DNA of 62,134 nt, counting the filler, from Globobulimina sp. (Eukaryota), in NCBI GenBank assembly GCA_003354225.1. It is 8 parts of 8 records of this genome, joined end to end, with 100 filler letters (N's around TTAATTAATTAA, not from the genome) between each part and the next. Parts side by side here need not be neighbours in the genome. Positions count along the whole stretch, not along the records: positions 7,831 to 15,528 come from PIVH01000129.1; 7 more parts are not named here. One strand, written 5' to 3'. Below are positions 2,392 to 62,134 of the stretch, piece by piece. The translations under genes and the position numbers were made by a program. Position 1 is the stretch's first letter. Every line of letters starts with the position of its first letter. The notes below the pieces were generated by a model. That model made no database searches. It saw nothing but the letters and a program-made list of their open reading frames with translations, and had not been told where the DNA came from.

Positions 2392-4150
2392 TCAAAAGTT
2401 ACAAACAAATTGATTGATAATACATGAGCTTTGCCAGATATTTAATCCAATGTAGCCATTCAACAAACTTGATGCAAAAGTGATTGTATAATTAGTTACC
2501 AATGTATCATTTAAAAAAACTGTCACATATCGGTTATTCTCATAAAAATTGACTTGCAGTTCATACCAAATATCATTGCCAATATTACCATTATTAACTA
2601 GAAAATATTGTGTATACGGATTAAACTTAAAAAATTTGACACCGCCTCCTTTCGATAAACCATGATCTAAAAACATATTTATTCCAAATGCAGAATTCCA
2701 AATATTCAGCTCATCCATGTTATTATCAACACCAAATACCACAGCAATGGCTGACCCATCACGAGTTATTGTGGATCGACCGGAGGTTGGATTACCATCA
2801 GATGTTACCAACTTAAATACAATCTGACACTTCCAATTTGCGTTATTTTGTGATACATTATTTGTCAAAAAAAAGAATTATTCATTGGATTGCCTGCAAA
2901 CAAATTATTACTAAACGAAGGCAATAAATTCCAAAACACTGATTCATTATAAACAACATCAATATCGTCATTCTGTTTATTTTCCATTGCAGCAAATTCT
3001 AAGTTTGTATCAAATGCACATTTTTTTGGTATCTTAATCGGAATTGGTAACTTCATTGAAGTTGGAGCATTATCAAAGTTATCATAAAAAGTTAATTCTC
3101 TCAAATATACGCCGCCTTCATTCCATCCTGCTCCACTTTTTATGAATTAAAAGGAATAATATTATGTCCAAAAATGGAAATGTTATCAGGTAACTTACCT
3201 TAAATACCATTTGCCATTAGAATCACGCACCACTTCTGCAGCGTGCATGTCACCAAATATTGCAATCTCTTGAGCGGAATTATCAGTCACAGATAGAGCC
3301 AAAGTAATATGAGTTATTTGAATAAAATGCACGTGTTGTTGAATAATTATACCATGGTCCAGTAAATAAGTAATAGTTATCATTCCGTTGAATGACAAAT
3401 GGTGACTCACAAGAACCACCGAAATTGCGTCCAGTATATCCACAGTTGAACACAATGGATGCGGTTTTATTCCATGAACGAATATCAAACAAGTTGTTGG
3501 ATTGTCTTAGCAACACTGTATGTGCTACATTAGCTATATTCTCATTATTTGGTCGTGTTGCAGTATAATAGAGATGCCATAGCAACGTATTATTATCATA
3601 AAACAACATTGGATCTCTTGCATCAACGCCATCAACGAATAATGTGCCCATTCTTTTCCATTCATATAAATCGGTTGAATATGCAGCGCGAATTAAAGCT
3701 TCACTGCGATTGTATCCGCCGCCACAATACACCATAATATAGCAACGTTTGCTATTTTCTTTATTTATTTCGCTGTTACATGAATAATTATAATCGGTAA
3801 CATCTAAAATATGCGGAGCCCATAAATGCGTTTCTGGAGATTCAGCGCCTAAAATGAATGGTTGCTGCTTGAATGTTTGTGGATCATTATAAAGAACTGT
3901 CGTATGTAGCTGAGTGCGCGAAATTTACTTCAAATGATGGATCTGCAGGATTTGTATGTGATATTCCGATAATGTTCCAATTGGTTCCTAAGATAAATGT
4001 GTGATCATTCACATAGAATAATGATGCTGTGTCGGGATCATATACTTTGAATATCGGCCCTGCTTTGATCAATGTATCGGATAAATAAGCATCAAACACG
4101 ATTGAATTTAGTAAGAAATAAACTAATACCAATACTTGGTTAGCCGTCAT
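2392..4150 (-). pseudogene. Secreted five-bladed beta-propeller glycoside hydrolase (GH32/GH43-like) with a C-terminal beta-sandwich/lectin-like domain; three frame breaks and one intron
   Basis: Signal peptide, then motifs VNDHTF, HLWAPHI, DARDPM, CESPFVI, MHAAEVV and GAGWNEGGVYL, spread over ORFs 3887-4150, 3283-3735, 3195-3488, 2865-3104 and 2392-2868. GT-AG intron at 3136-3198. Frame breaks near 3890, 3285 and 2868 (a T8 run). Either a pseudogene or sequencing errors. Confidence 0.65.
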
Positions 4151-7730: not shown

Positions 7731-7830
7731 NNNNNNNNNNNNNNNNNNNNNNNNNNNNNNNNNNNNNNNNNNNNTTAATTAATTAANNNNNNNNNNNNNN
7801 NNNNNNNNNNNNNNNNNNNNNNNNNNNNNN
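7731..7830. other. Artificial contig linker N44-TTAATTAATTAA-N44 (also at 15529-15628, 23326-23425, 31111-31210, 38888-38987, 46649-46748, 54393-54492)
   Basis: An identical 100-nt spacer with all-frame stops occurs seven times. Contig lengths decrease monotonically: 7730, 7698, 7697, 7685, 7677, 7661, 7644, 7642. Confidence 0.98.
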
Positions 7831-8285
7831 AAATTTGTATACTATTTGTATACCGAAATTTGTATACTATTTGTATACCGAAATTTGTATACTATTTGTA
7901 TACCGAAATTTGTATATTATTTGTATACCGAAATTTGTATACAGAAATTTGTATATTATTTGTATACCGAAATTTGTATACTATTTGTATACCGAAATTT
8001 GTATACTATTTGTATACCGAAATTTGTATATTATTTGTATACCGAAATTTGTATATTATTTGTATACCGAAATTTGTATACAGAAATTTGTATACAGAAA
8101 TTTGTATATTATTTGTATACCGAAATTTGTATACTATTTATATACCGAAATTTGTATACTATTTGTATACCGAAATTTGTATATTATTTGTATACCGAAA
8201 TTTGTATACAGAAATTTGTATATTATTTTTATACTGAAATTTGTATACTATTTGTATACCGAAATTTGTATATTATTTGTATACC
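7831..8285. repeat. Minisatellite: 25-bp unit AAATTTGTATAYTATTTGTATACCG interspersed with a 14-bp unit AAATTTGTATACAG
   Basis: A directly visible tandem array that runs to the contig edge. It explains the three overlapping repetitive ORFs at 7835-8301. Confidence 0.95.
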
Positions 8286-8513
8286 TAAAGATTTAATTTA
8301 GTCACCAAAAATGTTTCGATAAGGGTAAAATATTTTACAATTCTCAACAATTAAAAATATGCAACCCTGCCCTCCTGCACCGGCCCTCTTGCTCTGGATC
8401 TTCTTGCCTCTTTCACCAGGGGCACTGCATCTTGTAATCTTGCCTCTGGGTCTATCGACCCGCCATGCAACTCTGTTGCCCCCCTATACATTGATAATAA
8501 TAATCCCTTTCAA

Positions 8514-9513
8514 ATGTTAATAAATGACAACGAAGAAAATTTCAATAATTTCATATCATCTTTAAAAGCAGAATCAAATAAAATGGATAATGTTAAGACA
8601 TATAGTTCTCAGGTAAATATCGGCTCGGTTTTATCGGCAATTATTGCAAATATCGCAATTTTTAATTTTGATATAAATACTCCCGCAAATAAGCATGGTA
8701 CAATTAAAGCATATATTAAATATATTGGACATTTAGATAATGAAAAATTTAACCGGTTATACCCAAAAATGTTAAATTCTGTGATGAATAATTTAATTCA
8801 AACCTGTATAATTGACAAAAATAGAAACATATTAAACTTAAATAAATATATTACCACCTTAACAAACAGACAAATTCCAACTGGATTAATTCAGAATAAT
8901 TCTCCCTCCACAAATTCCAACACGATTTCCAACAATTTTGAACCTCCCCGAAAAAGAAGGAAATTAAATAATTCTCAACAAAGTAACACGAATCAACAGT
9001 TTGCACCTAATTTCCCCACAAATTATACAAATAATACAGCACGAAATTCACAGCAAAGGCCCCTAAATCCCCTCACAAACAATTCGCAAACAGCGCTAAT
9101 TCCATATAACCATCATCCAAATTATCAAAATAATGCTGTTAATACAAGAAAAGTAAATCCTCAGCCCATTACAGCAGCAGATTTAGCCACGTTACGTGAT
9201 GATATGACACGTGAATTCCAACAAAAATTCGAAGAAAATAAACGTTTACAAAATAGAATTAATTATAACAATAAACCAAAATTTGACTACAATAATGATG
9301 ATCCAAATACTGTCGAATGCCTCGAATCTGTAAACACAAACAAAATCACAGGATTTATAATTGACAAACAAAAAAAACAAGATCCCATTGTCGTAATGGT
9401 AGACCAAGTCGTTGCAAAACAAAAAAACAAAACAATTACCAAATTAAATAATTTATTAAATACTAAATATACCCCATCGGATGTTTTAACAGATGTTTTA
9501 ACAGAATTAGAAA
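8514..9513 (+). CDS. Element A ORF1 (putative common 5' exon; N-terminal part of Gag-like protein)
   Basis: Homologous to element B ORF1 (AIIANIAIFNF/AILVNIYLFNF; IIDKNRNILNLNKY/IIDKNGYIINLKKY; KPKFDYN/KPTFEWN). Ends ...ELE A|GTTAAT with a phase-1 donor at 9514. The frame is open upstream to 8355 without an ATG, so the 5' part may be missing. Confidence 0.75.
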
Positions 9514-9779
9514 GTTAATACCTTTATATTTCTATTTCTCTCAAATTTTATAATGTTTGCAATGACTTTGGTATAATTTTTAATTGTTTCTGGCGCTTAG
9601 TCTGTGACTTTAAATCACTTCTTACGATTGATACTTTTATTAAATTCACCACCGATTATTAATCTCATTTATATTATACAACAACCGCAATACTTCCATG
9701 TTTACAATGTGTTTCTGTTAGTTTTGTGAATCTTGCTTTAAAATTTCTAAATGCTGTAGTCAAATATTACTTTATTTAG

Positions 9780-10831
9780 ATGGCAATTTTAATTTGGCAA
9801 ATATAATTAAATTATATTCACCGACAAATTCTTCCAAAATAAAAACCATAATAACAAAAAATGATAAATTTGCTGTCAAAATTGAATTAATTTTATTTTT
9901 CAGTGGATTTGTATCGGATGACTTTACTGTTTATGATCTTTATTATAAAATATTTAAATATTTGGATCCTAAAATTAAAAATATTGATCATTTTTCAGTC
10001 TCAAAAGAGTTAAAATCGCTATTTAAAAACAAATGGAATGCATTCAATATGAATCTTTTTATCATTTCATTTATCAAATTGATCTCCGACAGTTTAAGCC
10101 TATTAATACCAACCGATAAAGATCTACAATTATTGTTTCGTACTATTCGTATATTTTGTATGTATAAAATGTTCGATTTAACAAAATATGCCGAATTATT
10201 AATACCATTAATTAAAAATGACCGAATATCAGCTCCAACATTATTTGCTTGGATAAACAAAGGAATTAAGCATGCTTTGGACAGAAATAATTCTTTTTAT
10301 ATTACATTCTCTTCAAATATTATGCAATCTCAATTAACAATGAATAATAAATCATCATTAGACCAATTATTGTCGTCCACATTTTTATTTTATGATAAAT
10401 CTGAATTTTATGAGAAATCCGATAATGTTTTAAATATATTACAAAATGCGTTGATTTTAGATAAGTTAAATGCAGGTATTTCCCCTAAATCCGGTGCCTT
10501 TTATGATAAACAGGTAAAAAATACAAATAATTATAATAAAACATGGTCAAATTACAAACCAAATAAACCGAACATTAATAAACCAAATAATAATCCAAAT
10601 AACATTAAAAATGAACCTCCGAAAAAGAACCGCAATTTAAATCCAAAAGCAGCTGAAAAAGTAATCCAAAATTTATTATCAAAAACAGGCACTTCATTTT
10701 CATTAAACAGCAAATATTGTTGCTTTTATAATGCATATAATTATTGCCGATTAGGCGAAAAATGTCCAAGATCGCATATTTGTATTATTGATAATAAAAA
10801 TCATCCATTAATGAAATGTGACAAAATTTAG
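9780..10831 (+). CDS. Element A Gag-like exon with C-terminal CCCH-type zinc finger
   Basis: The ORF-track start is a TTG, with no ATG at the conserved start. Acceptor TTTATTTAG|AT GGC AAT. C-terminus CCFYNAYNYCRLGEKCPRSHICIIDNKNHPLMKC resembles the DIRS/Ngaro Gag zinc finger. Confidence 0.8.
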
Positions 10832-11137
10832 CCAATTATATCATTTATATGAATATTCATTGATATCTTTATAAAAATTCTTAATATTTGCTCTACATTT
10901 TTATTTATCTAATTATGAATGGATAATATTAAAGATTATTACTAAAATATTAATTGTCTTATTCTAAATTAATTTTTCCAACATTTTTTCAATTTTTTTC
11001 CTACATTTTTTGTTATTTAAATTTCTATCATTAATTTTAAAAATTTGTTAATATTAATATTTATGTTAATATTACTTTGTTTGTTGTATAAAATGTTTGT
11101 GAGTCAATAATATCTACTCTGTACATACTAATCTCAG

Positions 11138-12926
11138 TGATCGATCCCGTAATATCTGAAAAAGTAAAAAATTTACAAACATTACACGCCGAAGGCTATA
11201 AAAACAAACATCATTTCAACATAAATGCATTTAGAAAATACCTTAAATTGAAACAAAATGGGAACTTAGAAATCCATTTCATCGAAAATTGCTTCCCTTT
11301 ATGGAAATCCTTCCATAATAAAAGCTGGGAACCTTCGAACCTCTCAACAAAAATTAATAATTTAGTATGTACTAAAAATGATATTATTGCATTTATTGAT
11401 AAAATATCTGAGGAGTGCCAATTAGGCCAAATTGAGCCTATCAATTACGACCCAAAATATATATTAATGATCTTTGGAACACCAAAAAAAGATGAATTTG
11501 GTTTATATACTAAAACGAGAGTAATACGTAATGGCTCATTTCATGCATCCGGCAAAACAGCAATAAATCAATGGATTCGTAAAGAAAAATGTAATATGCG
11601 GGACCTCCCTAATTTGAAAACATACACCAAATTACTTATAAATAATGAATATATGTCCTTGCGTGACTTGGCAGACTTCTTCAGACAAATAAAACTGCCT
11701 GAAAGTGACGCGGATTTCGTTGGATATTCTTTATTTGGCCTACGATTTAGAGATCGTAGCCAACCGTATGGTGTATCCTCAGCACCCGGCAATTCCCAAT
11801 ACTTCTCAACAATTTTGGTTTGGATTCTGAATAATTGTGTACTTAATAAAAAACAGCAACATTTAATAAATTCAATTTTAGTCCATATCGATGACTTTGT
11901 CATCGCCGCAAAATCCAAAACCGACTGCCGTTTATTAACAAATTTATTCGATAACTTATTACGCGAATTAAAAGTAAAAATCTCTGAGCATAAATCTGTA
12001 GATTGTGTAAGGAAAGGAGTTATTTACGGTATTTATTGGAATTTGGCAAATAAAACACTCAAAATACCTGATTTAGCCTTAAAACAACTTAAATATTTTA
12101 TCTCTTTAGTCATAAAATACAGAATTGCAACGGGCCGCGCTTTGGAATCATTAACTGGCAAAATAATGCATTGGAGCCAGTTAAACAAAGCCACAAAAGC
12201 CTTAGCATACAGATCATTGGCTTATATTCATAAAAATATACGTAATGGCCGCTTAAATAAAACAGATTGCATAATATTACCCATTTCTGTTATCAATGAT
12301 TTACGTTTTTGGCTTAAATGGATTGATAATATTAAAATTGTGTCAATGTATACAATCTTAAACAATCCATCGATAAATGTGTTTGCTGCAACTGATGCGT
12401 GCAAATTTGGTGCAGGCTATGTCATTGATTCTTTATTTGCAAAATATAAATTCAATAAAAAGGATTTAAACCTCTCCATTAATCAAAAGGAGGCTCACTG
12501 TGTCCTAACACTCATCGAATCACATAAACGTTTATTAAATTGTATATTGATAATGCATCATGTTATTATTCAATGATTAGAAAATGGTCGACGTCGTATA
12601 ATATGATGATATTCGTATTTGAATTATGTTTATTAATGATAAAATACAAAATTTATATCCATTTTGTATGGCTACCATCAGCCTTTAATTTTTTACCAGA
12701 TCGATTGTCTAGATTTAAAATGACGGAATTCCATGAATTATGTACCAATTTTAATCTAAATTTAGTTGAAACCACATATGATTATTTTGGCAGATATCAA
12801 TTTGCCAATAATCCCTTAATGAATTATGAAAATGACATGGATGAATATGCAAAATTCATTAAATGGCTAAAACAACCATTAAATGTCAGAGCTGTCTCGC
12901 CATATAAATGTTATATGAAAATATGA
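11138..12926 (+). pseudogene. Element A reverse transcriptase-RNase H, frameshifted within RNase H at about 12540
   Basis: RT motifs PKKD...RVIRNGS, RDLADFFRQI, QPYGVSSAP and VHIDDF. RNase H motifs ATDAC, INQKEA, YIDNAS and N.LPDRLSR. Alignment to element B indicates a deletion of about 16 nt between ESHKRLL and LYIDN. Confidence 0.88.
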
Positions 12927-12976
12927 TTATAAACTCATTTCCAGTCTAATTTGCCCATTTTACGAGTGATTCAAGT

Positions 12977-13280
12977 TTAGCATTCCCAAAAATGCTCTCT
13001 TTAATATGTAAATTATATTATTATTTATATAATGCTTCTGTATAAATTCGTATAAATAATGATTAAATTATTAGTTTTAATGTATTTACTATCACTTAAA
13101 TCGCTAAAATCAAATTAAATTTGTGTTATTCGCATCAATCTAATAATTATGCATTGTATAATATGTTCAATTTAAATTTCTATCGATTCAATTTATATTA
13201 AAATGCCTTGACAAAATATAACTTGCCGTTTAATATAATGTTTCTAAAAAGACATATTAGCATTCCCTAAAATGCTCTTT
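12977..13280 (+). repeat. Two copies of a 24-nt hairpin-forming repeat TTAGCATTCCC(A/T)AAAATGCTCT(C/T)T in the pol-YR spacer (12977-13000, 13257-13280)
   Basis: Direct repeat with 22/24 identity; each copy has an AGCATT/AATGCT stem. Confidence 0.7.
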
Positions 13281-13671
13281 TTGTCTCTTGATATTCTAAA
13301 TTTACAAATTTTAATATTAATATTCAATATTTAAATGTTTACAATGGCCTCCTCAGACCGCTCAGAATTCAATGGAATTCGACTTAATATGCTCTATTTC
13401 TGTTTATCTGAGCTCGTGTCACGTTCCCCTGATGAAGGAAACTAAAGTGACTAAAACTGTTTTCGAGCTAAATTTTAAAATATACTTCGAAACTTTAGTG
13501 AAACCCTACAAGCTTTAAACAATTACATTTTTAATATTGTCTTTTGTTAATCGTTCTGGGCATTATTGTTTATCATTTTTGTCTTATAATTTGTGTGAAT
13601 TTTTTGCAAACAATCAATACTTTTTTGCAAACAATCAATTTTTAAATTTAAATTATTTTGTGTGTATATAG

Positions 13672-14888
13672 AATTCTTTCATGCCCGTTTAGCTAATAAT
13701 CGTATTGCCCCTAAAGACCCCAAAAATACACAACATATTCAAAAAATAAGATCCCGCGATAAAGTACATTTAACAAAAATACATTATGTTTCCAGTTTGC
13801 GAAACTGGTCAAAATATTGTTTAACAATCGATGAAGATCCATTGCAAATGCCATTGGACCCGCTGACGATAACGTATTGGTTCTCCGAAAGAGCACTACA
13901 ATTAGGCAGCGTCCAATCAATTGATACTTGGCAGTCAACATTAATATGGCTATGCAAATTATGTGGAGCCAATACTGCATGGAAAGGTGATATGGATTTT
14001 AAGGATTTTAAAAGTGGCTTAAAAATCGAATATTGGAAGAATGCACTAAGCAGACTTCCATTTGAATTAAAACACATAATAATGTATACAAAATTTTATA
14101 AAGCGTATGGAAAGCACCTATTAACAATCGATATTGATAATTTATTGAAGGTATTAATTGCGCAAATCTACTTTTGCTCAATGTCGAGACCGTGCGAATT
14201 AATAATATGTAAATCAAATAAAACTAAATTTGGTGTTAAATTAAAACATGTTTTTCATATAAATACAGCACCAAATAAATTAAATTGGTACTTTAAATTA
14301 TTTGTTGTTTCCTTCAAAAATCAAAAATTCAAAAGTGTTATTAAGAGAGTAATCATAGGAGACTCCAGATGCGGTCATAAATATATTAAAAATACACAGA
14401 AACACTGTCCATGCAATTATTTAAACCCATATCTATTACTAAGTATATATTTAGACAGATCATACAAATATGCATTACAAAACAAATATTTTACAATAAA
14501 TAAAAATCAGAATTTATTCAGATTTAAAAATAATATAAATGCCGTAACTACGGACTTATTAAACATAGCGAAAGAAATCACCATAATTTGCAATCTATCT
14601 GAATCTGAGCGGTATACTTCCTATGCCTTCAGAATTGGTGGTGCTTCTCTCGCCAATAATAACCAAATACCACATCCTAAAATCCTAAAATATGTCGGCT
14701 GGAAGCCATCGAATTTGCCGCATGTTTCTTACAGATATATGTACTTCAAAGAAGAACATTTTGCGACCTTTATTCGTGAATTAGTCCATGGATATAATTT
14801 TGAAAATAATAATGAGTTTAATTTGAATAATAATACAGGGCAAATATTTGATCCATGGGCAAATCGAGTTGACTACAAAGACTGGTAA
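13672..14888 (+). CDS. Element A tyrosine recombinase
   Basis: MSRPCEL (catalytic R), SFKN (K), SYAFRIGGAS (HxxR box with Y), VGWKPS (W) and YRYM (catalytic Y). N-terminal Y...LRNW..YC core-binding region. No ATG at the ORF start; acceptor TATATAG|AA. Confidence 0.9.
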
Positions 14889-15351
14889 TATCCATATAAT
14901 AATTCTCTCTCTTCATACCACAAAGTGATAACCACAAATCTGTAACTCCCCATAGTGATTTATTTCCAATGCGGTTTTATGTCTGGCACTTTTGTATATG
15001 TTGTTGTAGCACCAGTCTTTAGTTAGTGTTTGTTTGGGTGACTTTAAGTTTTCGTGTTTGGTTTTTGTTTCCCTCTCACAAATTTTAGTCCCCTCTACGT
15101 TCCTTTTCAAATTCCTTTAACGGCCACAGGTTTTAAAAAGATAAAATTTAGTCCTACGGGCAACGGGGTTTTATTTATATTTTATGGTGTATTGTACCAT
15201 AAAATAATACTATTGATTGGTTTATTTCTACCAATTAATAACATCAATATTAATTTAAATTTATTTCTCCCGTTTGTTCAAATATAAATCAAGTGGTCAT
15301 CACTGTTACCACTAACTTGAAATCAGTAATTAAATAAAAGTTATTAAGTTA

Positions 15352-15528: not shown

Positions 15529-15628
15529 NNNNNNNNNNNNNNNNNNNNNNNNNNNNNNNNNNNNNNNNNNNNTTAATTAATTAANNNNNNNNNNNNNNNN
15601 NNNNNNNNNNNNNNNNNNNNNNNNNNNN

Positions 15629-18301
15629 CAAGCACCTACTCAGCCACCCTCACTCGCACCCACTCAGCCACCCTCACAAGCACCTACTCAGCCACCTACT
15701 ATTGCGCCTTCACTCGCACCTACCCAGTCACCATCACTCGCCCCTACCCAACCACCGTCACTCGCCCCTACTCAACCACCATCACTGGCGCCTACTCAAC
15801 CACCCTCTCACTCACCTACCCAGCCACCGTCAACTGCGCCAACCCAACCGCCTTCATTAGCACCCACGACTGCGCCAACCCGTACACGTCATCCCACATC
15901 TGATCCTACATTCGATCCAACAAGTGATCCAACAGAGGAACCAACATTTTTCCCTACTTTTCATCCCACAAATGATCCAACTTTTGAACCCACACTTGAG
16001 CCAACTACAGATCCAACCAACGACCCCACTGCAGATCCTACGGCTGATCCAACCTACGAACCTACATTTGATCCTACATCCGACCCAACTGCAGATCCAA
16101 CATATGAGCCAACATTTGATCCCACTGCCGAGCCCACTGCCGATCCAACCTACGAACCTACATTTGATCCTACATTCGACCCCACCGCTGATCCCACCGC
16201 TGATCCCACCAATGATCCCACTGCAGATCCAACCTATGAGCCTACCTATGAACCTACATTCGAGCCAACTGCGGACCCCACTGCTGACCCCACTGCAGAT
16301 CCAACCAATGATCCAACTGGAGACCCCACTGCTGATCCAACCTATGAACCTACATTCGATCCCACTGCAGATCCCACTGCAGACCCAACCATGGAGCCCA
16401 CCACAGATCCAACCACGGAACCTACCACAGATCCGACTAACGCACCTTCCCTCGCTCCATCCTCTGCACCTACACAACCACCGACATTGGCACCAACTAA
16501 CGCACCTTCCCTCGCTCCATCTTCTGCACCTACACAATCACCGACATTGGCACCAACAGAACTATGCACGAGTATGATTATACAGATTAATCTCATTGAG
16601 AATAATATGGATGCGAATGGCATCATTATTGATGTAAATCATTACAATGGACATTATATTGAAGAGGCTAGTAAACAGTTTGATCGACCAAAATGGAGAC
16701 AGACTGACCAAAATAGTGTAATTTCATGGCGACCGTCGTATTGGAGCATATATTCATTTATAACATCAGATGAATTATTATATTTAGATGACGCTGGATT
16801 ACATCCACCGACAAATCAAATCTCAATATGGTATTTAAGCAGAGATTATAATATTTCTGCACAGATTGAGTTAGAATGTAGTTTAAGTTTAGCCCCTACT
16901 GCGGCGCCTAGCGTATCGCCATCCATTGCACCGACACAACCACCATCTATGTCACCTAGTGCAGCTCCATCGGTTGCACCGTCTATTGCCCCCACTACAG
17001 CCCCAACAGCATCGCCCTCGATGGCTCCCTCTGCTGCGCCTAGTTTAGCACCGAGCACAGCACCGTCCGCATCACCGACACAACCGCCGACTGCAGCGCC
17101 TAGTACAGCTCCCTCCGTAGCACCCTCCGCATCGCCTACCCAGCCGCCTACCACTTCGCCCGTTACACAATGCCAAGTATTACGTGTGACAATCCATAAT
17201 AATATTGATATTGATATATTTGATTTTGAGCAGCAAGCACATTTAATAAATTATAAAACAAATTGGTTTCGCGCAAGTGATGGCTCTGCCATTCAATATG
17301 ACAACAGCCATAATCGGTGGCTCATTATTATTGGTAGTAATCCTCCATTTTTCTATTTATCAACGGATGCAATGCCACCGGCCACTGCCAATTGGACGTA
17401 TGGTGGGGATGATGGTGATGCATATGACATTGTAATAGATACGCGATGTGATCCAGGACCACTCACCGACGCGCCCAGCACCACTGCGCCCACAGCACAG
17501 CCAAGCATGACGCCGCCAACAAGTGCGCCAAGCACCAATATGCCGAGTACCAGTGCTGAACCAACCACTTCTCGACCCACCGTCGACTCAAATCCTGGTG
17601 GCACAACATGTGAATCATGGCAATTTAATATCTCTTTTACCGGTACTATTGATCCGCAATCCGCGTCGGAAGTGTCTATATTGAAAGAATCATTGATTAA
17701 ATGTATTATGGATACAATTTTATTGAAACGCAAATTTCAGAATGAATGGGATGATGAATGGTGTATTATTATTGCTGAATATGTCTATGATGAAAATGAT
17801 GCTGAATTGCAAGTAGTATTAAGTGTAAATGATGAATTATATGATGATTATTTTGAAAAATTTAATAAAAATAAATTTCTCTCTCAATTGCAAGAATGTA
17901 TGGCCATACAGTTGGAGTTCGAAAGCAGTGAACAAGAAATCAATGGATTGGCTATGTCTTCTTTAATTTATTCGATTAGTACAACAAATGCTGTGTCGAC
18001 CACGATGGTAAACGGTAATGGAGAGAAAGATGGAATGAATAGTTTACCATTGGGATTAGGTGAGGAATGTGACGCATTTTCCTTATTATGTTGGCAGTTA
18101 TATGTCATTATTATCGGTTTAATTTTATTGCTTATTATGTGTATAATATGTGTTTGTTTTAAAACAAAAAAAGATATTAAAGCAGGTAAATTTGCACATT
18201 TAAAACAAAATTCGCAAGCTTCTCAAATAGATATTGAACTGCAACCGCGCTCAAATAATACTGATGGTACACACAAAACAGGAACAGATTTAGATTTGTA
18301 A
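15629..18301 (+). CDS. Type I membrane protein with mucin-like PT/PS repeats and two Cys-flanked modules (5'-truncated)
   Basis: The frame of ORF 16391 is open back to the contig start (QAPTQPPSLAPT..., DPTADPTNDPT...). C-terminal TM LYVIIIGLILLLIMCIICVCF followed by KTKK. Confidence 0.85.
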   Translation, partial: QAPTQPPSLAPTQPPSQAPTQPPTIAPSLAPTQSPSLAPTQPPSLAPTQPPSLAPTQPPSHSPTQPPSTAPTQPPSLAPTTAPTRTRHPTSDPTFDPTSDPTEEPTFFPTFHPTNDPTFEPTLEPTTDPTNDPTADPTADPTYEPTFDPTSDPTADPTYEPTFDPTAEPTADPTYEPTFDPTFDPTADPTADPTNDPTADPTYEPTYEPTFEPTADPTADPTADPTNDPTGDPTADPTYEPTFDPTADPTADPTMEPTTDPTTEPTTDPTNAPSLAPSSAPTQPPTLAPTNAPSLAPSSAPTQSPTLAPTELCTSMIIQINLIENNMDANGIIIDVNHYNGHYIEEASKQFDRPKWRQTDQNSVISWRPSYWSIYSFITSDELLYLDDAGLHPPTNQISIWYLSRDYNISAQIELECSLSLAPTAAPSVSPSIAPTQPPSMSPSAAPSVAPSIAPTTAPTASPSMAPSAAPSLAPSTAPSASPTQPPTAAPSTAPSVAPSASPTQPPTTSPVTQCQVLRVTIHNNIDIDIFDFEQQAHLINYKTNWFRASDGSAIQYDNSHNRWLIIIGSNPPFFYLSTDAMPPATANWTYGGDDGDAYDIVIDTRCDPGPLTDAPSTTAPTAQPSMTPPTSAPSTNMPSTSAEPTTSRPTVDSNPGGTTCESWQFNISFTGTIDPQSASEVSILKESLIKCIMDTILLKRKFQNEWDDEWCIIIAEYVYDENDAELQVVLSVNDELYDDYFEKFNKNKFLSQLQECMAIQLEFESSEQEINGLAMSSLIYSISTTNAVSTTMVNGNGEKDGMNSLPLGLGEECDAFSLLCWQLYVIIIGLILLLIMCIICVCFKTKKDIKAGKFAHLKQNSQASQIDIELQPRSNNTDGTHKTGTDLDL

Positions 18302-46648: not shown

Positions 46649-46750
46649 NNNNNNNNNNNNNNNNNNNNNNNNNNNNNNNNNNNNNNNNNNNNTTAATTAA
46701 TTAANNNNNNNNNNNNNNNNNNNNNNNNNNNNNNNNNNNNNNNNNNNNTT

Positions 46751-47814: not shown

Positions 47815-49558
47815 ATGACATCAAATAAACATGAATTAGAAGATAATGCAAATGAAGTATCAAAGTTCATATCTGAACCTGTAAAATTCAGCGAAATTGA
47901 TGTTGTACAGTTATATGCAACAATGGCTGATCAAATTGCAAAAATAAATGAACAAAACTGGTTAATATCGTTTCGTAAAAATGTCCTTAAATCAAAACCT
48001 TCAAATATCGCAAATTCCGATAAAATTGCATATTTAACCCAAGTTGAAATAGTAATATTATGTTATTATTTAAAATCATTATTATCAAAGGTTTATTTTA
48101 GCCCAGCAAAGAATCGAACAACTTTTGAATCATTAAAATTATTTCTTAATACAATATTTAAACATTGTATTTATGATAATAAACATCGCTCCCTTTTTGA
48201 CATAGTAATTTCAGTCGCAACGCCAATTTCCGATAAAGACTTTAAAAATTTAAGAGAAATAAAATACAAATCCGAATACAAAAAATATAAATTAATCACA
48301 CAATTTGATTACATCAATTATTTAGATTTATTATTATCAAATAAAACTAATAATATAATTAACTTAAATTTATCCCATTCCCAAGATGAGATTGATAATG
48401 CGGAAAGTGATGATTTTAAACATCCAAATTATAATGGAATGTCACATACATTTGGCAATGATTTTACTTTCTCTGCATCAAATCTCTTAAATTTACCTGA
48501 AATTAATAAATATACCAATAAACCCCCAAAAATAAATGAAATTACGTCAATCCCATCGTCCACTCAATCAAAACCAATCAATTCCAACAAAAATAAAAAT
48601 ATAACTCCGACAACAACCTCCAACAAATCAAATAAATCAAATACAAATAGAACAGCAGTAAATGATACATCTTATATGCACTCGCCCTCATTCCCAATAT
48701 TCACCACAAAAGACATTACAAATAAAACTAACTTTGAAAACTTCTGTGATTCCATAATAGGCGAAACATTAAATTTATTAAGCAATGATACGATACTTTA
48801 TCGCCAACAATTATTGATTGCAATATTAGTAAATATTTATTTATTCAATTTTAGTATTTCAATGCCTACCTCGTCTCCAATTAATAAACATATTGCGGTA
48901 ATTGCAAAAACCAAAGATTTAAATTGTTTATATAGGAATATGAGGAAACAAATACCGTCAGTTCAAAAGCAATTATATGAGACAGGAATAATTGATAAAA
49001 ATGGATATATAATAAATTTAAAAAAATACAAATTAGTCCTCAAACATCGCAAAATACCACATTTAATAATTACTAAATATTCGCCTCAAACACGAGTACG
49101 CCCAAAACCCGATAATTGTACCCCTTTATTTGATAATTTATTTCAACCCCAACCAAGAAGACATAAATCATCATCTCCGCTTACTGTGGCAACAACAAAT
49201 AAACCATTAACAAAAAATGATATGGTATTAATGCAAAATCAAATTAATACGGCAATTAACTCTAAATTTGATTTATTAAAACAAGGTTTAGATCGAAGAG
49301 AATACGCAAAAAAACCTACCTTTGAATGGAATGAACATAAATCAAATCATAATCAATTAAGTTCAATTAACACAAATGATATGATTGCAGCAGTAATAGA
49401 TAAAGAGAAAAAACATGAATGTATATTGAAAATTGTTGATGTTGCAATTACAAATAATCGAAATAAAAACGTTGTATTAGTAAACAATTTAATTAATCAG
49501 AAAGTTGGTATAAATGGACAAAGATTAACAAATAAAGATATTGTACGCCAATTAGAAG
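47815..49558 (+). CDS. Element B ORF1 (putative common 5' exon)
   Basis: ATG-initiated. Homology with element A ORF1 ends at ...QLE G|GTATAT (phase-1 donor at 49559). The last 26 ORF codons (IYIYLLFYQIFF...) read like translated intron. Confidence 0.8.
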
Positions 49559-49779
49559 GTATATATATTTACCTTTTATTCTATCAAATATTTTTTATTC
49601 GTTTTAACTTTCTTTTTTTGAATTTTTATAAATTATAATGATTTGAATAGATTGACATCTTTCTTACGTAATAATTTTAGTTCTTTCTTTGAATTTTAAA
49701 TCAATAATTTATATTTTACCACAACCACAACTTAAATTTATTAAAATATATTAAAATGATTTTAATTAATACTAAAAAG

Positions 49780-51017
49780 GAAATATAACATTGTCAAATA
49801 TTGCGATAATGCAATCACCTGCAAATTCAGCAAATATTAAAAGTTTATTAAATAACAAAATTATTTTGTCAATAAAAGCAGATTTAATATTATTTATTAC
49901 TGGCACAAATGATGAAGATTTCTCATTTCTTAATTTAATGTATCAAATAAATAAATATTTAAACAAAAGATGTAAATTTTTGCATAATAACTTTTCAACA
50001 GAATTAAAATCATTATTTAACAATAAATGGAATATATACAATACATTTAATTGGATTAGAGAATATATTAATGATTTAAACATAAAATTTAATAAATTAA
50101 TTCCAAAAACATTGGAAGAAGCAGAATTATTCAGAGTAATAAGACTATGGTTTGATTATAAATCATATGATATTAAAAAATTAATGGAAACGTTATTATT
50201 CTCTGTAAAAGATACAAAATTTGAACCTCATTTAATGGCAGCATGGGTTGATGGAGGTGTTCGTGATGCAATTATAAAAAATCAATGTTTCACAGTAATA
50301 TTCACGAGTAATTTTATGAACAATCATCGAATTAAAAACAGCAAAATAACATTGGATGTATTCCTTTCAAATCAATTTAATAATTATTCCAGTGAGGATG
50401 CACAAAATAAATCAAATTTAATTACAAAAACAGATAAAATTAAAGACCGAAGGAAAGCTGGTAATAATCGAGAATCAACAGATAACGACGCATATTATTA
50501 TCGTCAGAGAGAATCGAATGAAAATAGATATAATCCTCCTCCATATCGAGAGCGTCGTAACAGAAATCATCGAGATCGGCGTAATCGAAATAGGGATACA
50601 GATAAAAAAGGTGCGTATCAACAAAATGAAAATACTCAAAATAATAATACTCGAAATTACAATCCAGAATACAATCGAAATAATAATGATGATTACAAAC
50701 GAGGATACCGAAATTACCGTGATAATGTTAGGAATGACTATGCAAAATATGACAGAAATTATGAGCAGCAAACAAGATCAGATTATCCTCGTAGTAATCG
50801 ACAGAATAAGCAGCCAAATGTATTAGTTGAAGCTGTAAAAGAATGCAAATCATTGTTGAGAGGAACTGGGAAATATTATTCTCTCAAATCACAGCAATGC
50901 GCATCATACAATGCAAATGATTCATGTTACAAAGGTGCCGAAAATTGCCAACGTGATCATAAATGTATATTACATCCAAGAGATAATCATCCATTATGCA
51001 AATGTCCCTCGTTATAA
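49780..51017 (+). CDS. Element B Gag-like exon with Arg/Asn-rich region and CCCH zinc finger
   Basis: Acceptor ACTAAAAAG|GA AAT ATA ACA TTG; ELKSLF.NKWN shared with element A; C-terminus CASYNANDSCYKGAENCQRDHKCILHPRDNHPLCKC. Confidence 0.8.
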
Positions 51018-51350
51018 ATAAAAATAAAACTAATTTAATACCAAATTCTAATAAATTAATTTCCAAATAATACAATTTACCAAATAAGTTTCTTTAATCA
51101 TTACAAAACAGTATTATTTAAATTTATTCATTGAATTTTATTAATTGTTACTTAACTTATTGTTTATATGTAAAATAATTTAAATTTTCTAAATTTCGCC
51201 AACATATTTCCAACTTTGTCAATTAAAAAACTAAATAAAATATAAATTTCTTGTCGCTAATACTTATTTAATATATAAAATAAGTCCCCTTTGTCGCAGT
51301 GGTTGTGGTAATTTCTTTGCTTAAATTCTAAAAATCTTTCTTTTATTCAG

Positions 51351-53176
51351 AAATATCTCCAGAATGTGCCTCAAAATTAAAAAATCTCCAAAAATTACAT
51401 AGCGAAGGATCTAAATTTAAAAATGATTTAAATATCAAACAATTCAAAAAATATTTGAAAACAAAACAAAATTCAAAACTTGTAATTAAATATGTTGAAC
51501 ATGGATTTCCTTTATTTCTTAAAACGCATAACAAAACTGACCCGAATGGAGTACCTTTGTCACCTCTCGAACTTTCAACAAATATTAATAACATTGCCAA
51601 CTCCTTAAATGATGTAAAAGCATTTATTGATAAATTAGCAGAAGAAGTAAAAAATGGACAAATTGAGCCAATTTATCATAATGCAAAATATTATTGCATG
51701 ATTTTTGGAACTCCCAAAAAAGACGAAAAAGGATTTTACACAAAAGTCAGAGTAATAAGAAATGGTTCATACCACGAACAAGGCAAAACTGCCATAAATC
51801 AATGGATAAATAAACAAAAATGCAAAATGAAAAACCTCCCGAACATGATACAATACATAAAATTATTAATTAATAAGAATTACTTTGCCTTAAGAGACTT
51901 ATCTGACTTCTTCAGACAAGTTCCATTACCAAAAGAAGACGCGGATTACATTGGATATTCATTATTTGGCCTCAGATTTAGAGATCGCAAACAGCCATAC
52001 GGTGTAGCTTCAGCCCCAGCAAACTCACAGTGGTTTGCCACACTTTTAATTTGGATCATGAACAATCATAAACTCTCCAATGACCCAGAATTATTAAATT
52101 GTATCTTAGTCCATATCGATGATTTCGTCTTAGCAACAAAAACAAAACAAAACTGCTCAAAATTAGAAACAATTTTTGATGAATTAATGTCAGAATTAAA
52201 TGTAAAAATATCTCATAAAAAATCAGTACATTGCTGTCAAGAAGCAATATTATACGGATTATCATGGAATTTACGAAATAAATTAATATCAATACCTGAA
52301 AAAGCATACATTGAATTAAAGAGATTCATAGATTTAGTCATAAGATATCGAATAGTCTCAGGTGCAGCGCTTGAATCCCTTACAGGGAAAATAATGCATT
52401 GGTCGCAATTAAATAAATCCTCAAAATCGTTAGTCTTTAATTCCATTTTTTATATTCATAAAAATCTTAGAAACGGCAACTTAAAAAAATCAGATTATAT
52501 AATATTACCATTGTCAATCATAAATGATTTGAAATTCTGGTTAAAATACGCAGATTGCATAAGATGTGTACCAATGGCACACATTTTAAATTCACCATCA
52601 ATTAATATTTATGCTGCGACAGATGCATGTAACGAAGGAGCAGGATTTGTCATTGATAATGTATTCGCAAAATATAAATTTGTAAATAATGATAAAAATT
52701 GGCATATAAATTTAAAAGAAGCTCACTGTGTATTATCATTAATTGAAACATTTAAACATAGATTAACAGGAAAAGCACTTTTATTATACATTGATAATGC
52801 TTCGTGTTTCTATGCTATGGCAAGGAAATGGTCGTCAACCTATTCGTTAATGATGTTTGTATATGAATTATGTATAAAATTAATGAAATATCGCATATTT
52901 TGTAAATTAGAATGGGTTCCTTCAGCATTTAACTCATTACCGGATGCATTATCACGTGATGATGATGAAAAATTCTTTAATTATTGCAATCTTTTTAATT
53001 TACGATTAAATCAAATCAAACCAACATATTTTAATGACTTTAAATTTGATTTTAATCAAAATAAATTTTATGAAAATGATATGATTGAATATAGAAAATT
53101 TATAAATTGGCTCAATTTATCACCAAAAATAAGAGAACAATGTGATTATCCTTTTTATGGTGACTATAATATCTAG
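51351..53176 (+). CDS. Element B reverse transcriptase-RNase H (intact)
   Basis: Acceptor CTTTCTTTTATTCAG|AA ATA TCT CCA. RT motifs RDLSDFFRQV, QPYGVASAP and VHIDDF; RNase H motifs ATDAC, INLKEA, YIDNAS and NSLPDALSR. Confidence 0.92.
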
Positions 53177-53778
53177 AAATTACTTGAATTATTACATATA
53201 AATGATAAATTGCTCAAAATTGTGTTTATTTCAATTAAAATACCAATTAATTAATATTGAATAATTAATAAAATGTGTTTCTATCTATAAATGCTATAAA
53301 ATTGTATAAAATTTCTAATTAATTAAACTGTTTAAATTGTGGCATATTCTGTTGATTCTAATTATATTCAATAACAATATAATTTAACTTGATTGCATAA
53401 ATTGTCAATATAAACGACTTAGCAATTATAAATTCAGCAATTGTACTTATTAATTAACAGACTCAAAACGACTAGTGAGGTCACGAGCGGATGCTCGGAC
53501 TCAAAAGTCAAGGGTACAAAAGTTTACTTATTTTAAAAAAAACTTGCGACTAACAAAAGAGAAACGAACTTTTTAAAATATAAAAAAAGAGATTTCTCCA
53601 CAATATAATTCTGATGAAACTTATGAAACCTCAGTAAAAGTTACTAACTGTTGAAATTTTAAGACCCTAAAAGGATTATAATGACTTTCATAAGCGTCAG
53701 ATTTAAATTTTCTTCTTAATGCACTTTTTCCTTAATCAAAAAATGCATATTATAAATTATAATAATATTTAATATCAG

Positions 53779-57344: not shown

Positions 57345-60300
57345 ATGGCAAACCAATCATCACCAGAAGAGTCAGATGATACTGACACGACAATATCTGT
57401 TTGTGTGTATATAAATAAACTATATGCGGAAACTGCAGGATTTGAGGAGCAAGAAGATGTTTGGAAATTAGCAGAATTGGATAAATCACAAATTGAAATT
57501 AAACGTTTACGAGAAGATATCCCAAAAGCATTTATAAAATCAAGATGGATCAACCCATTATTTAAAAATAAGAAAGAATATGAGTGGAAAATATTTAGTT
57601 ATGATGCATCTAAAGCAGACCTAGAAATGGAATGTGATGATGATTTACAAGAAGAGATCAATGAATTTTTCGATTCTGATACTGATGAATTTGAAAATGG
57701 TGATTATGTTAACAATGAAAATATATATTTAAAACTAAGAGTTGTATTCTTTCAAAGTATGTTTCCATATCACATAAGTGGCACAACTCTATAATATTTC
57801 TCTACTATTTTATCATTGAACAGTTATAAATGAATCACCAGAGCGGAATCCATCGGAGTTAAAGCCTCCAGAATTGCATATGAAGCGTATCAGACATTTA
57901 TATGACGCGATACAAGAACGCATGGTGTTATTAGCAGAATTAGAATGGATAATATCAGCAGATACATTAGATAGGTATCCATCATGTGCATTTACATTTG
58001 ATATCCGTGAGAATTTGCAATTTACACAACATGAATATGTATTACGTACACATGTACACAACCAAACTTGTGCAGATTTATCACCGTTAGAAGTAGACAC
58101 ACAATATGAGTTTCAAATAAATATGTTTGATGAAGAGATGATGCCATCAGTACCTGCATCACCATGGAGTAAATCATTACGTATTCATACACCTAAACCA
58201 CCGTCGATATTACCAGCACCCAAATATTTACAGATAACCACATGTTTACCTTATTTAATACAATTTCAATGGGATCCTGGATTTGCCTCCGCAACTAAGG
58301 AGAAAGTAAAGTATGTTATAAAAGAACATTTACAATATGGTCAAGATCCGTTTGTAGCACAATATCCAACACCAATTGGCAAATTATCACCATTACAACC
58401 AAACACACGGTATACGTTTACTATTTTCACAGCCATAAATGGCAGAGTATCACCTGAAAGTAAAGCCATTTCAGTCATGACTCCGGCAGCACACTTTTAT
58501 GAAACAGCAAATTATAACCCATCACCGCCTAGCAATGTTGAACAGATTATTGATAATAAATATGATGAAATATTATTAATGTGGGACTTACCACCGCATA
58601 CATTTGGTGATTTAATATATTATCAAATATTGGATTTACCGCAACAGGATGTATTCACATTATATGAGTTACCGTGTCGGATAGCTAGACCTGATAAAGA
58701 TACTTATATTAGGATTGTTACTGTTGCACAAATACATGTTAATGATGAAAATATTGAATTTAAATCTGAGTCTATACAGTTTAAATTAAAAGGTATGGCG
58801 CCTATGATTGATATTTTACACAATGATTTTATAGAAACACCGATGAACCTCAATTATTATCATGAGAATGATAATAGGATATCAGGTTTAGATGATAATA
58901 TGCCTATAAATGATATAAATAAACGATATTTGTCACCATATAAACATTTTGATGGCAATAATAGCAAAATCCGATCTGCTGCAGACGATGATGACGGACA
59001 GTTACCGTTTCCAATAATGATTCAATCAGAAACATCACTTGCACGCACTGACATACAGCAGCATACAAATGATGTTTTTGTTCTAATTGAAAACGAATTT
59101 GATGAATGTAAACAGGAAAATGTATTGAAATGTGCATCATTTGAGAGAATAAAAATATTATTAAATCAGTGTGGTATTATAATGGAATGTGCACAGCCAC
59201 AAAATGAAAAGTTGCACAATATAATCCATGATCTGGTGCATAATAAATTGGGCAATGGAATCTATTCAACTACAGCATTATTAAACGATTTCCATCATCT
59301 AAAATTGTCGCACGATGAAGAGTTTGATAAAATTTTCGTTGCTTTAACGGAGCAAAGTTGTGAGGTTACGACCTGTCAACATTTAGCCAGACATTATCGA
59401 GATCGCACACAAACACAAACACATTTGAAACACAGTGATGACAGCAACGGATATTGTTTAAATTTGATTTCTCGAATACATACTTATTTTATTCATTCAT
59501 ATGATTTGAACAAATTAACTGTCAATGATATTAAAATTCTTACTCAAGAATTAAATCAATTTAAGCAAACAATGCAAATCAATGATGAGACTTATCACGA
59601 TGCACTGCAACAAAAAAAATTAGAAATATCGTACAGAATCATGAGCAATAAGAAAGGTAAATTAATTAAGAAATTAACATCAACGTCAATCAATAATAGA
59701 TATATTGAGCAACAATCAAATGATAACAAAGTTGATGCGTCAGAATATAAACTATTCACTGATGTACTATATGCTGATGGTGGTTTAGCGTTGCTGCTAT
59801 CTGTAATTGATGAGCAGGAATATGATACAGAAGCAATTTATGACGATTTGATACAGGAACAGCAATCAAATATATTTTTATACTTCAAAAACAATTTGCA
59901 ATCTAAAATGCATCAATTTTATGCCATAAAGGAAGTGTTATCAAGATATATATCTGCGGTTAAAAGCGATAATTTGTTAAATTACGAGCAACAAAATAAA
60001 ATGTATACTTTGATACAATTTTGTGGATTAACAACAGCAGCAAGTAACGTAGCAAAAGATTTTTTGCATGCTACAAACTGGAATTTAGTAACTTCAATCG
60101 ATCGCTATTTTATTTTTGGCGGTGATTCATCGAAATTAAAAGTGCATGATTCAAATGTCCAAGCAATAATAAAAGAAGACACAGAGGTAAAAGAAGGCAC
60201 AGAGTTTCTAAACGATGATGTGTATAGTTTGGGAACTAAATGTTGGTATTGGTCCTCAACAAAGAACCATCCAAATTATGTGGGAGCAAAGCATCCAAAT

Positions 60301-62134
60301 CTAAAATTAGAAGTGTTGTATCATGAGGAAATTGATTGTAATGTAGCGACGTGGAATAGCTTAAATGCAGAATGTATGTCGAAATTGAATACATATAAAG
60401 TTCGAGATATTGTATCCAATGGACATGATATCCAAATCTATGGTATTGTAAGGCAACGGGCATTTACTTTAAACCATATGCATGCAATGATATTATATAC
60501 AAGCTACACAGAATGGTGTTCCATATTTTGCAGCATTTTAAGGAATGAAGTTATCGCAGACATTGCCGGCATCGCTAACTGGGCACGATTGCTAATTGAA
60601 TGTGTGCAATGTTACGGTACCGCTCTGTTACCAGGCAGTAAAGAAGTATTTTATCGCGGCGTTGATCGAGACTTTACATTTAAAAAATTTGTGACCCAAT
60701 TCCATGTTCCATTAAGTACCACGACTGAAAAAATTAAAGCTGCAGAATTTGCGAATTTTGCCGATTCGTCAGAGGGTCTTATCATTGAATTGACCAATTA
60801 TAACCGGAGCAATATGATATTTAATGTATTTAAATTTGATTGTTCTTTATTGTCTGCCTTTGCTGAGGAGAGAGAGATATTATTTTTTGGAGGTGATACG
60901 ATTTTGAAAATACAATCAATCATTCGAATTGTGGACAGAAAGTGGATGAATTATATGCATTTTGTTGAGGCAATAAATTATATTTCACGATTAATGAATG
61001 GTTTGTCGCTTAATGTCAAGTTAATATCTAGAATGTGTAAGAGAGCAATGAGACAAATTTTAAACAGTGTAATAATGCCATCACAGCAAGCGAATTTACC
61101 AACCTATGTCGCTGAGAAATTAATAGATTATCATATTGTTAACAGATATAGAGACGTTGAACTACATTATGATGATTTGATGGGTAAATATAGTTGGTTG
61201 AAGAAAATATTTGTAAAGAATGAAGGTGCTGAGAACTGTTTAAATATCTATAATATATGTTGTTTATTTCAGAAAAGTAATAGAATCATTATCGATATGC
61301 CCGACAACTTTGTGACCACCAAAATATTTTGTTTATCAATGATGACTGATCTATTAAAGCTTGTAGACAGTAATTATTGTTTTAACAAATTAGAGCTACA
61401 TTGGCCAACACAAATTCCATTAGAAAGTAAGTTTGAAATTGGTAATTTATTCAGTGATAAAGACACAAAACTATTTCATTTACAAGCCGATTTTTCGTGG
61501 AGCTGGGTTCGAATTATACAACGCCAACAAACGACTGTTGTCAAGCAACTATCAATATTTGTTGATCATGGTATGTATTTGCTAGCTTTTTAGTTGTCAT
61601 TCCAGTGAATTCAATGCATTTTAACAACAGACGTGGAAGATAATGATTTAAGCGATTATCGAGAATACGAAGACGACACATTATTTGAGATAGTACCTCT
61701 GTGTGCATCACAGGGAATGATTGACATTTTGCACAATGATTATGCTCAATATATACCAAAGGAAAACTCAGCTCGGCAATCCTTTACATTAAGACACAAA
61801 ATTATTTCATATTGGCACCAACTTAACGTACATTCGGATTCGTTTCGGATAATGTCAGTGTTACCAATGCCAGTTTTAAATGCAATCTCAATATATATTC
61901 CACCATTCCCTCGTGAAAGATTCTTATTTGATCTGTTACAAATTAATCCAAATGTATTAACATTTCATTTTCGAATCGCCAAACTTGTAAATAAGGAATA
62001 TTGGAAATTTATCAGTTATGTGTATAACCATTATCCCGTGAACTGGAATCAATATATAAATGTTCCATATAAAACATTTGAAGCACAAGTGATTATCGAC
62101 CTGTGTCTATCTGGGCATTATCCTGTCTTTGATT
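57345..62134 (+). CDS. Large protein with FN3 repeats, a UBA-like motif and an ADP-ribosyltransferase-like (R-S-E) domain; introns 57757-57823 and 61571-61630; runs off the window
   Basis: FN3 (W.P...Y...L.PNTRYTFTI); QFCGLT...A..FL.ATNWNL..SIDRYF (UBA-like); LYT...FYRGV...PLSTTT....A.EF...SAFAEEREILFFGG. Both introns are phase-consistent, and the last exon is open to 62134. Confidence 0.75.

Follow-up and report, generated by a model that had tools for sequence, protein, structure and literature searches.

Conserved candidate splice sites point to probable expression by alternative splicing from a single donor in Ngaro-like tyrosine-recombinase retrotransposons

We analysed a stretch of 62,134 nucleotides (nt) of DNA from Globobulimina sp. 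(assembly GCA_003354225.1; hereafter the window), which contains two divergent retrotransposons, element A and element B. The 62-kb window is made up of eight contigs, each of about 7.7 kb, and is not a single locus: adjacent contigs have no physical linkage, and their joints are formed by 14 runs of 44 N, paired round a short linker with stops in all six frames (e.g., 7731–7830, 15529–15628 and five more). Element A lies on the contig at 7831–15528 (PIVH01000129.1) and element B on the contig at 46749–54392, and all of their features described here are on the plus strand. In element A, the first open reading frame (ORF1) is open at 8355–9518, with its first in-frame ATG at 8514. It is followed by a Gag-like ORF with a Cys/His zinc-finger motif at its end (Gag-ZnF, 9780–10831, in a frame open at 9722–10831), by pol, which encodes a reverse transcriptase (RT) and then an RNase H (11138–12926, in frames open at 11092–12576 and 12528–12926), and by a tyrosine recombinase (YR) ORF (13672–14888, in a frame open at 13599–14888).

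An earlier reading of this DNA, the original prediction, held that ORF1 closes on a splice donor that serves three acceptors, one before each downstream ORF. The tail of ORF1 indeed consists of a GAA codon, A|GT and the stop codon TAA (9516–9518), and a 5′ splice site at the GT of 9514–9515 (hexamer GTTAAT) would end exon 1 (8514–9513) in phase 1. The three candidate acceptors are AGs at 9778–9779, 11136–11137 and 13670–13671. After each of them, two bases precede the first full codon, so that the Gag-ZnF, pol and recombinase frames are all in phase 1 and match the donor. As had also been predicted, no in-frame ATG is found from the upstream stop to five codons beyond the AG in any of the three frames. 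The proposed introns would measure 266 nt to Gag-ZnF (intron 1, 9514–9779), 1624 nt to pol and 4158 nt to YR, and the predicted junction codons (AAT, ATG and AAA) include no stop. One detail stood only in part, namely the textbook branch point claimed before acceptor 2: the sequence TACTAAT is present, but only about 5 nt separate its end from the AG, and branch points usually lie farther away than that.

The identities proposed for the three downstream ORFs were borne out by zinc-finger columns, domain matches and a predicted fold, respectively. The Gag-ZnF ORF of element A matches zf-CCCH with E = 0.0039, below the Pfam cut-off, and the zinc-finger columns C..C..H.C..H..C are invariant in seven relatives; its AlphaFold2 model was too poor for a fold search (predicted local distance difference test, pLDDT, 48.2). 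The pol of element A matches RVT_1 (E = 2.4e-8), that of element B matches RVT_1 (E = 6.2e-11) and RT_RNaseH (E = 7.8e-5), and many of the 53 proteins homologous to the element B pol carry RVT_1/RT_RNaseH. By sequence, the last ORF has no Pfam match and reaches only E = 0.036 in a PDB sequence profile search. In an alignment of its relatives, R172, K215, W343 and Y355 are invariant across 44 sequences, and the AlphaFold2 model built on this alignment (pLDDT 89.1) has Cre recombinase as its best fold match (E = 3.3e-8, TM 0.58/0.73), followed by XerA, XerH and lambda integrase. Hence, on the basis of the invariant R/K/W/Y residues and the Cre-like predicted fold, the last ORF is identified as a tyrosine recombinase. 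ORF1 matches no Pfam family and gave no usable Atlas match.

By gene order and domain content, elements A and B fit Ngaro-type members of the DIRS order. They combine a reverse transcriptase and RNase H with a tyrosine recombinase instead of a DDE integrase, as in the DIRS order, and they have the Ngaro order of Gag, RT/RNase H and YR; DDE integrase, protease and methyltransferase domains were not detected in the ORFs of either element. There are no inverted repeats bounding the element, which, together with the lack of a methyltransferase domain, argues against a DIRS1-like assignment. Terminal repeats of the split direct type (A1-[ORFs]-B1A2B2) were not found within the contigs, which end inside the element or are permuted round it.

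Element B shows the same series of ORFs and candidate splice sites. Exon 1 (47815–49558) begins with the ATG at 47815 and ends in phase 1, where the C-terminal motif of ORF1 seen in A is followed by G|GT (49558|49559). The GT of this putative 5′ splice site (49559–49560, hexamer GTATAT) is followed by 26 unconserved codons in the same frame. Phase-1 acceptors lie at 49778–49779, before the Gag-ZnF ORF (49780–51017), at 51349–51350, between a T-rich tract and an intact pol ORF (51351–53176), and at 53777–53778, before a YR ORF that opens at 53779 and is cut off by the end of the contig at 54392. The corresponding introns would be of 221 nt to Gag-ZnF, 1792 nt to pol and 4220 nt to YR. Protein identity between A and B is 30% for ORF1 and Gag-ZnF, 60% for RT and 50–56% for YR, and the spacers are unalignable; the pol and YR acceptors of B fall in exactly the alignment columns of A, and its Gag-ZnF acceptor is one codon later. 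The C-terminal part of the element B YR is found at the start of the same contig (46749–47224), with about 50 residues missing between it and the N-terminal part at the contig end, and the contig is thus circularly permuted or spans two adjacent copies. One metagenome relative (L003) has 119-nt identical ends (1–119 and 8015–8133), which are compatible with split direct repeats and no proof of them. Together, the permuted contig of B and the ends of L003 suggest tandem copies, circular DNA or assembly round split direct repeats.

The original prediction had proposed, as a check, that the conservation and phase of the donor and acceptors be examined in further copies, and the outcome agrees with it, as follows. 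A scan of metagenome contigs gave 18 loci, of which L012 was removed as a near-duplicate of L011, and the full set thus comprises 19 elements (A, B and 17 metagenome loci) with 25–60% protein identity. Their G+C content ranges from 26 to 54%, so the loci probably come from different hosts. In the other contig sets, the tally was 0 of 83 pattern matches for prokaryote genomes and 0 of 96 for viral contigs, and neither set yielded a locus. The set provided 37 acceptor sites, in 15 YR, 14 pol and 8 Gag-ZnF ORFs. When the YR frames were read from each upstream stop onward and aligned with MAFFT without supervision, a phase-1 AG was found in a single column in 15/15 elements, compared to 7/15 for the next best column and a background of 7.1% per codon. 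This column is the point where similarity starts, the codon just before it sometimes being the stop itself. Since the AG is constant but the residue encoded there is not (A, D, E, G or V), the conserved signal is at the level of the nucleotides and not of the amino acid.

A phase-1 AG likewise marks the onset of conservation in 14/14 pol ORFs. It occupies one column in a first group of seven (A, B, L002, L003, L004, L008 and L016; 7/7), and in a second group (L006, L009, L010, L018, L007 and L011) it lies 9–10 codons further upstream, within one codon from one member to another, where an additional conserved stretch begins. The AG of L014 falls in a gapped part of the alignment, upstream by about 8 codons. 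In Gag-ZnF, whose N-terminus is too variable for alignment across groups, a phase-1 AG is found 0–19 codons after the frame opens in 8/8 ORFs, and its column is identical within the pairs A/L008 and L003/L016. The surroundings of these AGs also resemble acceptors: the base at −3 is C or T at 34/37 sites, compared to 42.8% of the 922 other phase-1 AGs in these ORFs (binomial p = 4.7e-10), and the pyrimidine fraction in the 19 nt upstream is 0.569 at the sites versus 0.458 (p = 2.5e-6). The background of phase-1 AGs in these ORFs is 5–8% of codon boundaries. To guard against a bias from searching phase 1 only, AGs were counted in all phases over the interval that starts at the upstream stop and ends two codons beyond the site, and alternatives were present in phase 0 at 13/37 and in phase 2 at 9/37 sites. 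A stop lies 0–4 codons upstream of the AG at 18/37 sites.

These starts could in principle be used in the absence of any splicing, by non-AUG initiation, reinitiation or an internal ribosome entry site on a full-length or internally promoted RNA, the AG being under some other constraint. An in-frame ATG is indeed present one or two codons after the AG at 6/37 sites, and a conserved non-coding block upstream of YR in the A and B families (see below) could be a promoter. However, 31/37 starts have no ATG, and translation of this kind accounts neither for a fixed-phase AG at the exact onset of conservation in three ORFs of 19 elements, nor for the YAG and pyrimidine context, nor for the conserved GT of the same phase at the end of ORF1, and we regard it as improbable.

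The end of an ORF1-like frame is present in six loci, and the tails can be aligned in five of them (A, L008, B, L003 and L006). In all five, a phase-1 GT occupies the same column, directly after the motif D-[VIL]-[LV]-x-x-[LV]-[EQ], against a background of 3.4% for phase-1 GTs in these ORFs (28/832). The similarity of the tails ends at this column, and the frames stop after 1, 1, 26, 4 and 24 codons, respectively. The hexamers are GTTAAT (A and L008), GTATAT (B), GTTTAT (L003) and GTAAGT (L006), and donor strength thus ranges from weak to perfect consensus, the latter in L006 only. With the donor base A or G, 0/15 of the junction codons predicted for these five elements are stops.

The ends of Gag-ZnF and pol have no conserved donor. 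Phase-1 GTs do occur near them in A and in some relatives, as would suit three ordinary introns in series (ORF1–Gag-ZnF, Gag-ZnF–pol and pol–YR) that give one long polyprotein mRNA, but most of these GTs belong to zinc-finger Cys codons and their positions are not conserved. Moreover, the last 16 codons hold no phase-1 GT in 2/11 Gag-ZnF ORFs (L003 and L014) and in 6/13 pol ORFs (L002, L003, L007, L009, L010 and L018), and the pol C-termini differ widely in length. A match in phase between the ORF1 donor and all three acceptors, as seen in every lineage, is a requirement of a hub donor but not of serial introns. With no conserved donor closing Gag-ZnF or pol, the best fit is one hub donor, and introns in series are very unlikely.

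The signals seen in element A, taken singly, could be due to chance, and it is their conservation across 19 elements that chance does not explain. The agreement in phase and position among elements of 25–60% protein identity supports the one donor and three acceptors of the original prediction. We put at roughly 70% the probability that a clade of tyrosine-recombinase retrotransposons (DIRS-order, Ngaro-like) is expressed by retrovirus-style alternative splicing from this hub donor, and we infer from sequence conservation that the spliceosome would use the donor and acceptor sites. One full-length transcript would then serve as both replication template and pre-mRNA. The unspliced RNA would give only ORF1, translation stopping 1–27 codons after the phase-1 GT, and splicing of the single ORF1 donor to one of the three phase-1 AGs would give in-frame ORF1–GagZnF, ORF1–RT/RNase H or ORF1–YR, three fusion products that share an N-terminal ORF1 module. 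The nearest acceptor, that of Gag-ZnF, would be expected to be used the most, leaving structural protein in excess of enzyme; the choice of splice site would thus set the ratio between the two, a role played by frameshifting in retroviruses. Weak donors and introns that are long compared to those of the host (60–67 nt) may keep most of the RNA unspliced, as in retroviruses, and only the unspliced RNA would be copied. The shared ORF1 module could plausibly bring the enzymes into the particle without a protease.

The host itself is capable of splicing, which counts in favour of splicing from the hub donor. Apart from the contigs of A and B, the window holds ordinary eukaryotic genes, which include those for a Rab3GAP2 N-terminal domain, a ubiquitin hydrolase, a lipoxygenase-like protein and an fn3/UBA protein. 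These host-type genes have long exons and few, short GT-AG introns of 60–67 nt (3135–3197 on the minus strand, 57757–57823 and 61571–61630), their donors being GTAAGT or GTATGT and their acceptors AAG or CAG.

Several observations weigh against expression from the hub donor. At 0.2–4.2 kb, the proposed introns of the elements far exceed the observed host introns in length, and 3/5 donors have T at +3 (GTTAAT twice and GTTTAT once), far from the GTAAGT/GTATGT of the host. The donor is documented in only five elements, which represent about four independent lineages. In L010, the sixth locus with an ORF1-like end, the tail is unalignable and a search for a compatible donor failed: both phase-1 GTs present would give TAG at the junction with the element's own pol acceptor. 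The expected fusions were also not seen among longer proteins: ORF1 had a single match, the 731-residue ORF1 of L008, and no fused protein; the longest strong match in the homologue search with pol was 651 residues; and among 378 matches to YR in a profile search of 1.84 billion representatives, the best 150 of 378 were all of 483 residues or less. This absence is weak evidence, as the collections consist mostly of ORF calls on metagenome contigs, which are unable to show splicing. In addition, all p-values and counts given above disregard shared ancestry and are indicative only. Finally, the copy of element A is damaged, the pol frame being broken near 12530–12575.

Damage is also what one would point to if the pattern were a matter of chance in decayed pseudogene copies: element A has a truncated ORF1 in addition to the broken pol, and L008 and L016 also have frame breaks. 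Long ORFs are intact in element B, L003 and others, however, and the conservation statistics of the YR acceptor, the donor and the −3 base run counter to this explanation, whose probability we consider close to negligible.

The weak donors in three of the five elements and the missing donor of L010, together with acceptors that are far better documented (37 sites) than the donor (five elements), could instead mean that the acceptors are real and that their partner is a trans-spliced host leader, or a short 5′ leader exon, which gives a start codon in a fixed phase without any ORF1 fusion. Such a leader would not account for the conserved GT in the tail of ORF1, which follows the C-terminal motif in 5/5 tails against the low background given above and at which similarity stops. 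Furthermore, with loci of such different G+C content and thus probably from different hosts, a single phase would be expected of a donor carried by the element itself but not of leaders. We know of no leader sequence for these hosts, and we find a leader unlikely as the partner of these acceptors, in comparison with the ORF1 donor.

Other features of the elements are described here for completeness. On its 5′ side, element A lacks an N-terminal part of ORF1 of about 390 residues that its close relative L008 has. At its start, the contig of element A is filled by 25-nt (and 14/11-nt) units in tandem (7831–8290), followed by a G+C-rich stretch (8360–8490) that is absent from L008. Copy A appears truncated or rearranged on this side. 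The proposed intron 1 (9514–9779) is 64–82% identical between A and L008 per 100-nt window, which is within the range of the flanking coding DNA, despite only 61% protein identity in ORF1; as a speculation, intron 1 could carry a cis-acting signal restricted to the unspliced RNA.

Just upstream of the YR acceptor, non-coding blocks of about 160–270 nt (13440–13600 in A and 53480–53750 in B) are conserved within families (A/L008 and B/L001) far better than the rest of the pol–YR spacer. In relatives such as L003 and L016, this spacer is less than 100 nt and thus too short for such a block. The block gave no Rfam match (one chance match to PYLIS_4, E = 0.33), no fold signal (z = 0.29), and neither a match nor complementarity to the element ends; a hammerhead-like motif considered within it was rejected for want of an Rfam match and a fold signal. 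Element A (15238–15287) and the B-family locus L001 (3338–3389) share, with 81% identity, a motif of about 50 nt that lies beyond the YR stop and may be part of a terminal or recombination region. On the contig that follows that of element A, a 906-codon open frame (15629–18301) with long Pro/Thr/Ser/Ala-rich tandem repeats, then a probable transmembrane segment, in a G+C-richer stretch, is a host surface-protein-like gene. Because some ORFs abut, a reassignment of stop codons in the host was also considered; only three single-stop junctions were found across the eight contigs, and the standard code was kept.

The strategy proposed here can be compared with several known systems. Retroviruses splice from one upstream donor to several acceptors, the unspliced RNA being both genome and gag mRNA, and the elements described here would do likewise. 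Suboptimal splice sites keep much of the retroviral RNA unspliced; foamy viruses have a spliced pol mRNA, and the env mRNA of Rous sarcoma virus retains the first gag codons. In retroviruses, however, the donor lies in the leader or in the first few codons, whereas here it lies at the end of a whole ORF of 330–730 residues and would give rise to large N-terminal fusions; A and B also differ in that they are not elements with a long terminal repeat (LTR) and integrase and have no protease to separate the parts. Splicing in LTR retrotransposons of the Cer1 and Copia type gives a gag-only or accessory mRNA, and not in-frame products in which pol and the integration enzyme are each joined to one common module. 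These elements also belong to other orders of retroelements than A and B. Spliced subgenomic RNAs are reported for Cer1 of C. elegans (PMC10309623) and for Ty1/Copia elements of Arabidopsis (PMC5580714), in which, as proposed here, a genomic RNA has its own donor and acceptor sites and splicing tunes protein expression.

Among tyrosine-recombinase elements, Ngaro is described as having a Gag-like ORF1, an ORF2 for RT and RNase H and an ORF3 for YR (PMC8547959). A and B share with it the order of Gag-like ORF(s), RT/RNase H and YR and the lack of detectable integrase, protease and methyltransferase domains, and permuted or circular assemblies such as those of B and L003 are what split direct repeats would give. 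They differ from it in having two separate ORFs in the Gag region and downstream ORFs that have no start codon and open at phase-matched AGs. DIRS-1 of Dictyostelium resembles A and B in being a tyrosine-recombinase retrotransposon that encodes Gag, RT/RNase H and YR. Its ORFs overlap, and it carries inverted terminal repeats, an internal complementary region and a methyltransferase-like domain, none of which was found in A or B. The mode of translation of the downstream ORFs of DIRS-1 is reported as unsettled (PMC7192593). The original prediction knew of no description of the present arrangement, and full-text literature searches are consistent with this: the Ngaro and DIRS texts, in the portions covered, make no mention of splicing of the elements' own genes, and in the full-text literature outside subscription-only reviews and supplements, no account was found of gene expression by self-splicing for DIRS, Ngaro, PAT or VIPER elements. 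We therefore think it likely that the splicing-hub strategy is real and new for DIRS/Ngaro elements, the splicing of retroelement genomic RNA itself being already known.

DIRS/Ngaro elements have no protease, their ORFs are often separated or without a start codon, and the way in which their RT and recombinase are made has not been worked out; a conserved hub of one donor and several acceptors would provide a concrete mechanism for the expression of these enzymes. On balance, we favour the existence of a widely distributed clade, represented here by loci of 26–54% G+C from many metagenomes, in which such a hub replaces frameshifting, protease processing and separate starts, every downstream protein being fused to the ORF1 module. 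If so, N-terminal fusion by splicing would stand in place of Gag-Pol frameshifting, and the regulated use of alternative splice sites in a genomic RNA, with its need for the export of unspliced RNA, would have evolved beyond retroviruses and LTR elements. A clade-wide hub, if true, would amount to an independent, retrovirus-like origin of regulated splicing outside LTR elements. Elements with this layout will be mis-annotated by ORF callers and gene predictors, and automated prediction is reported to have failed to resolve the gene structure of Ngaro (PMC8547959). A known exon structure would improve the annotation of transposons in the genomes of protists and marine eukaryotes.

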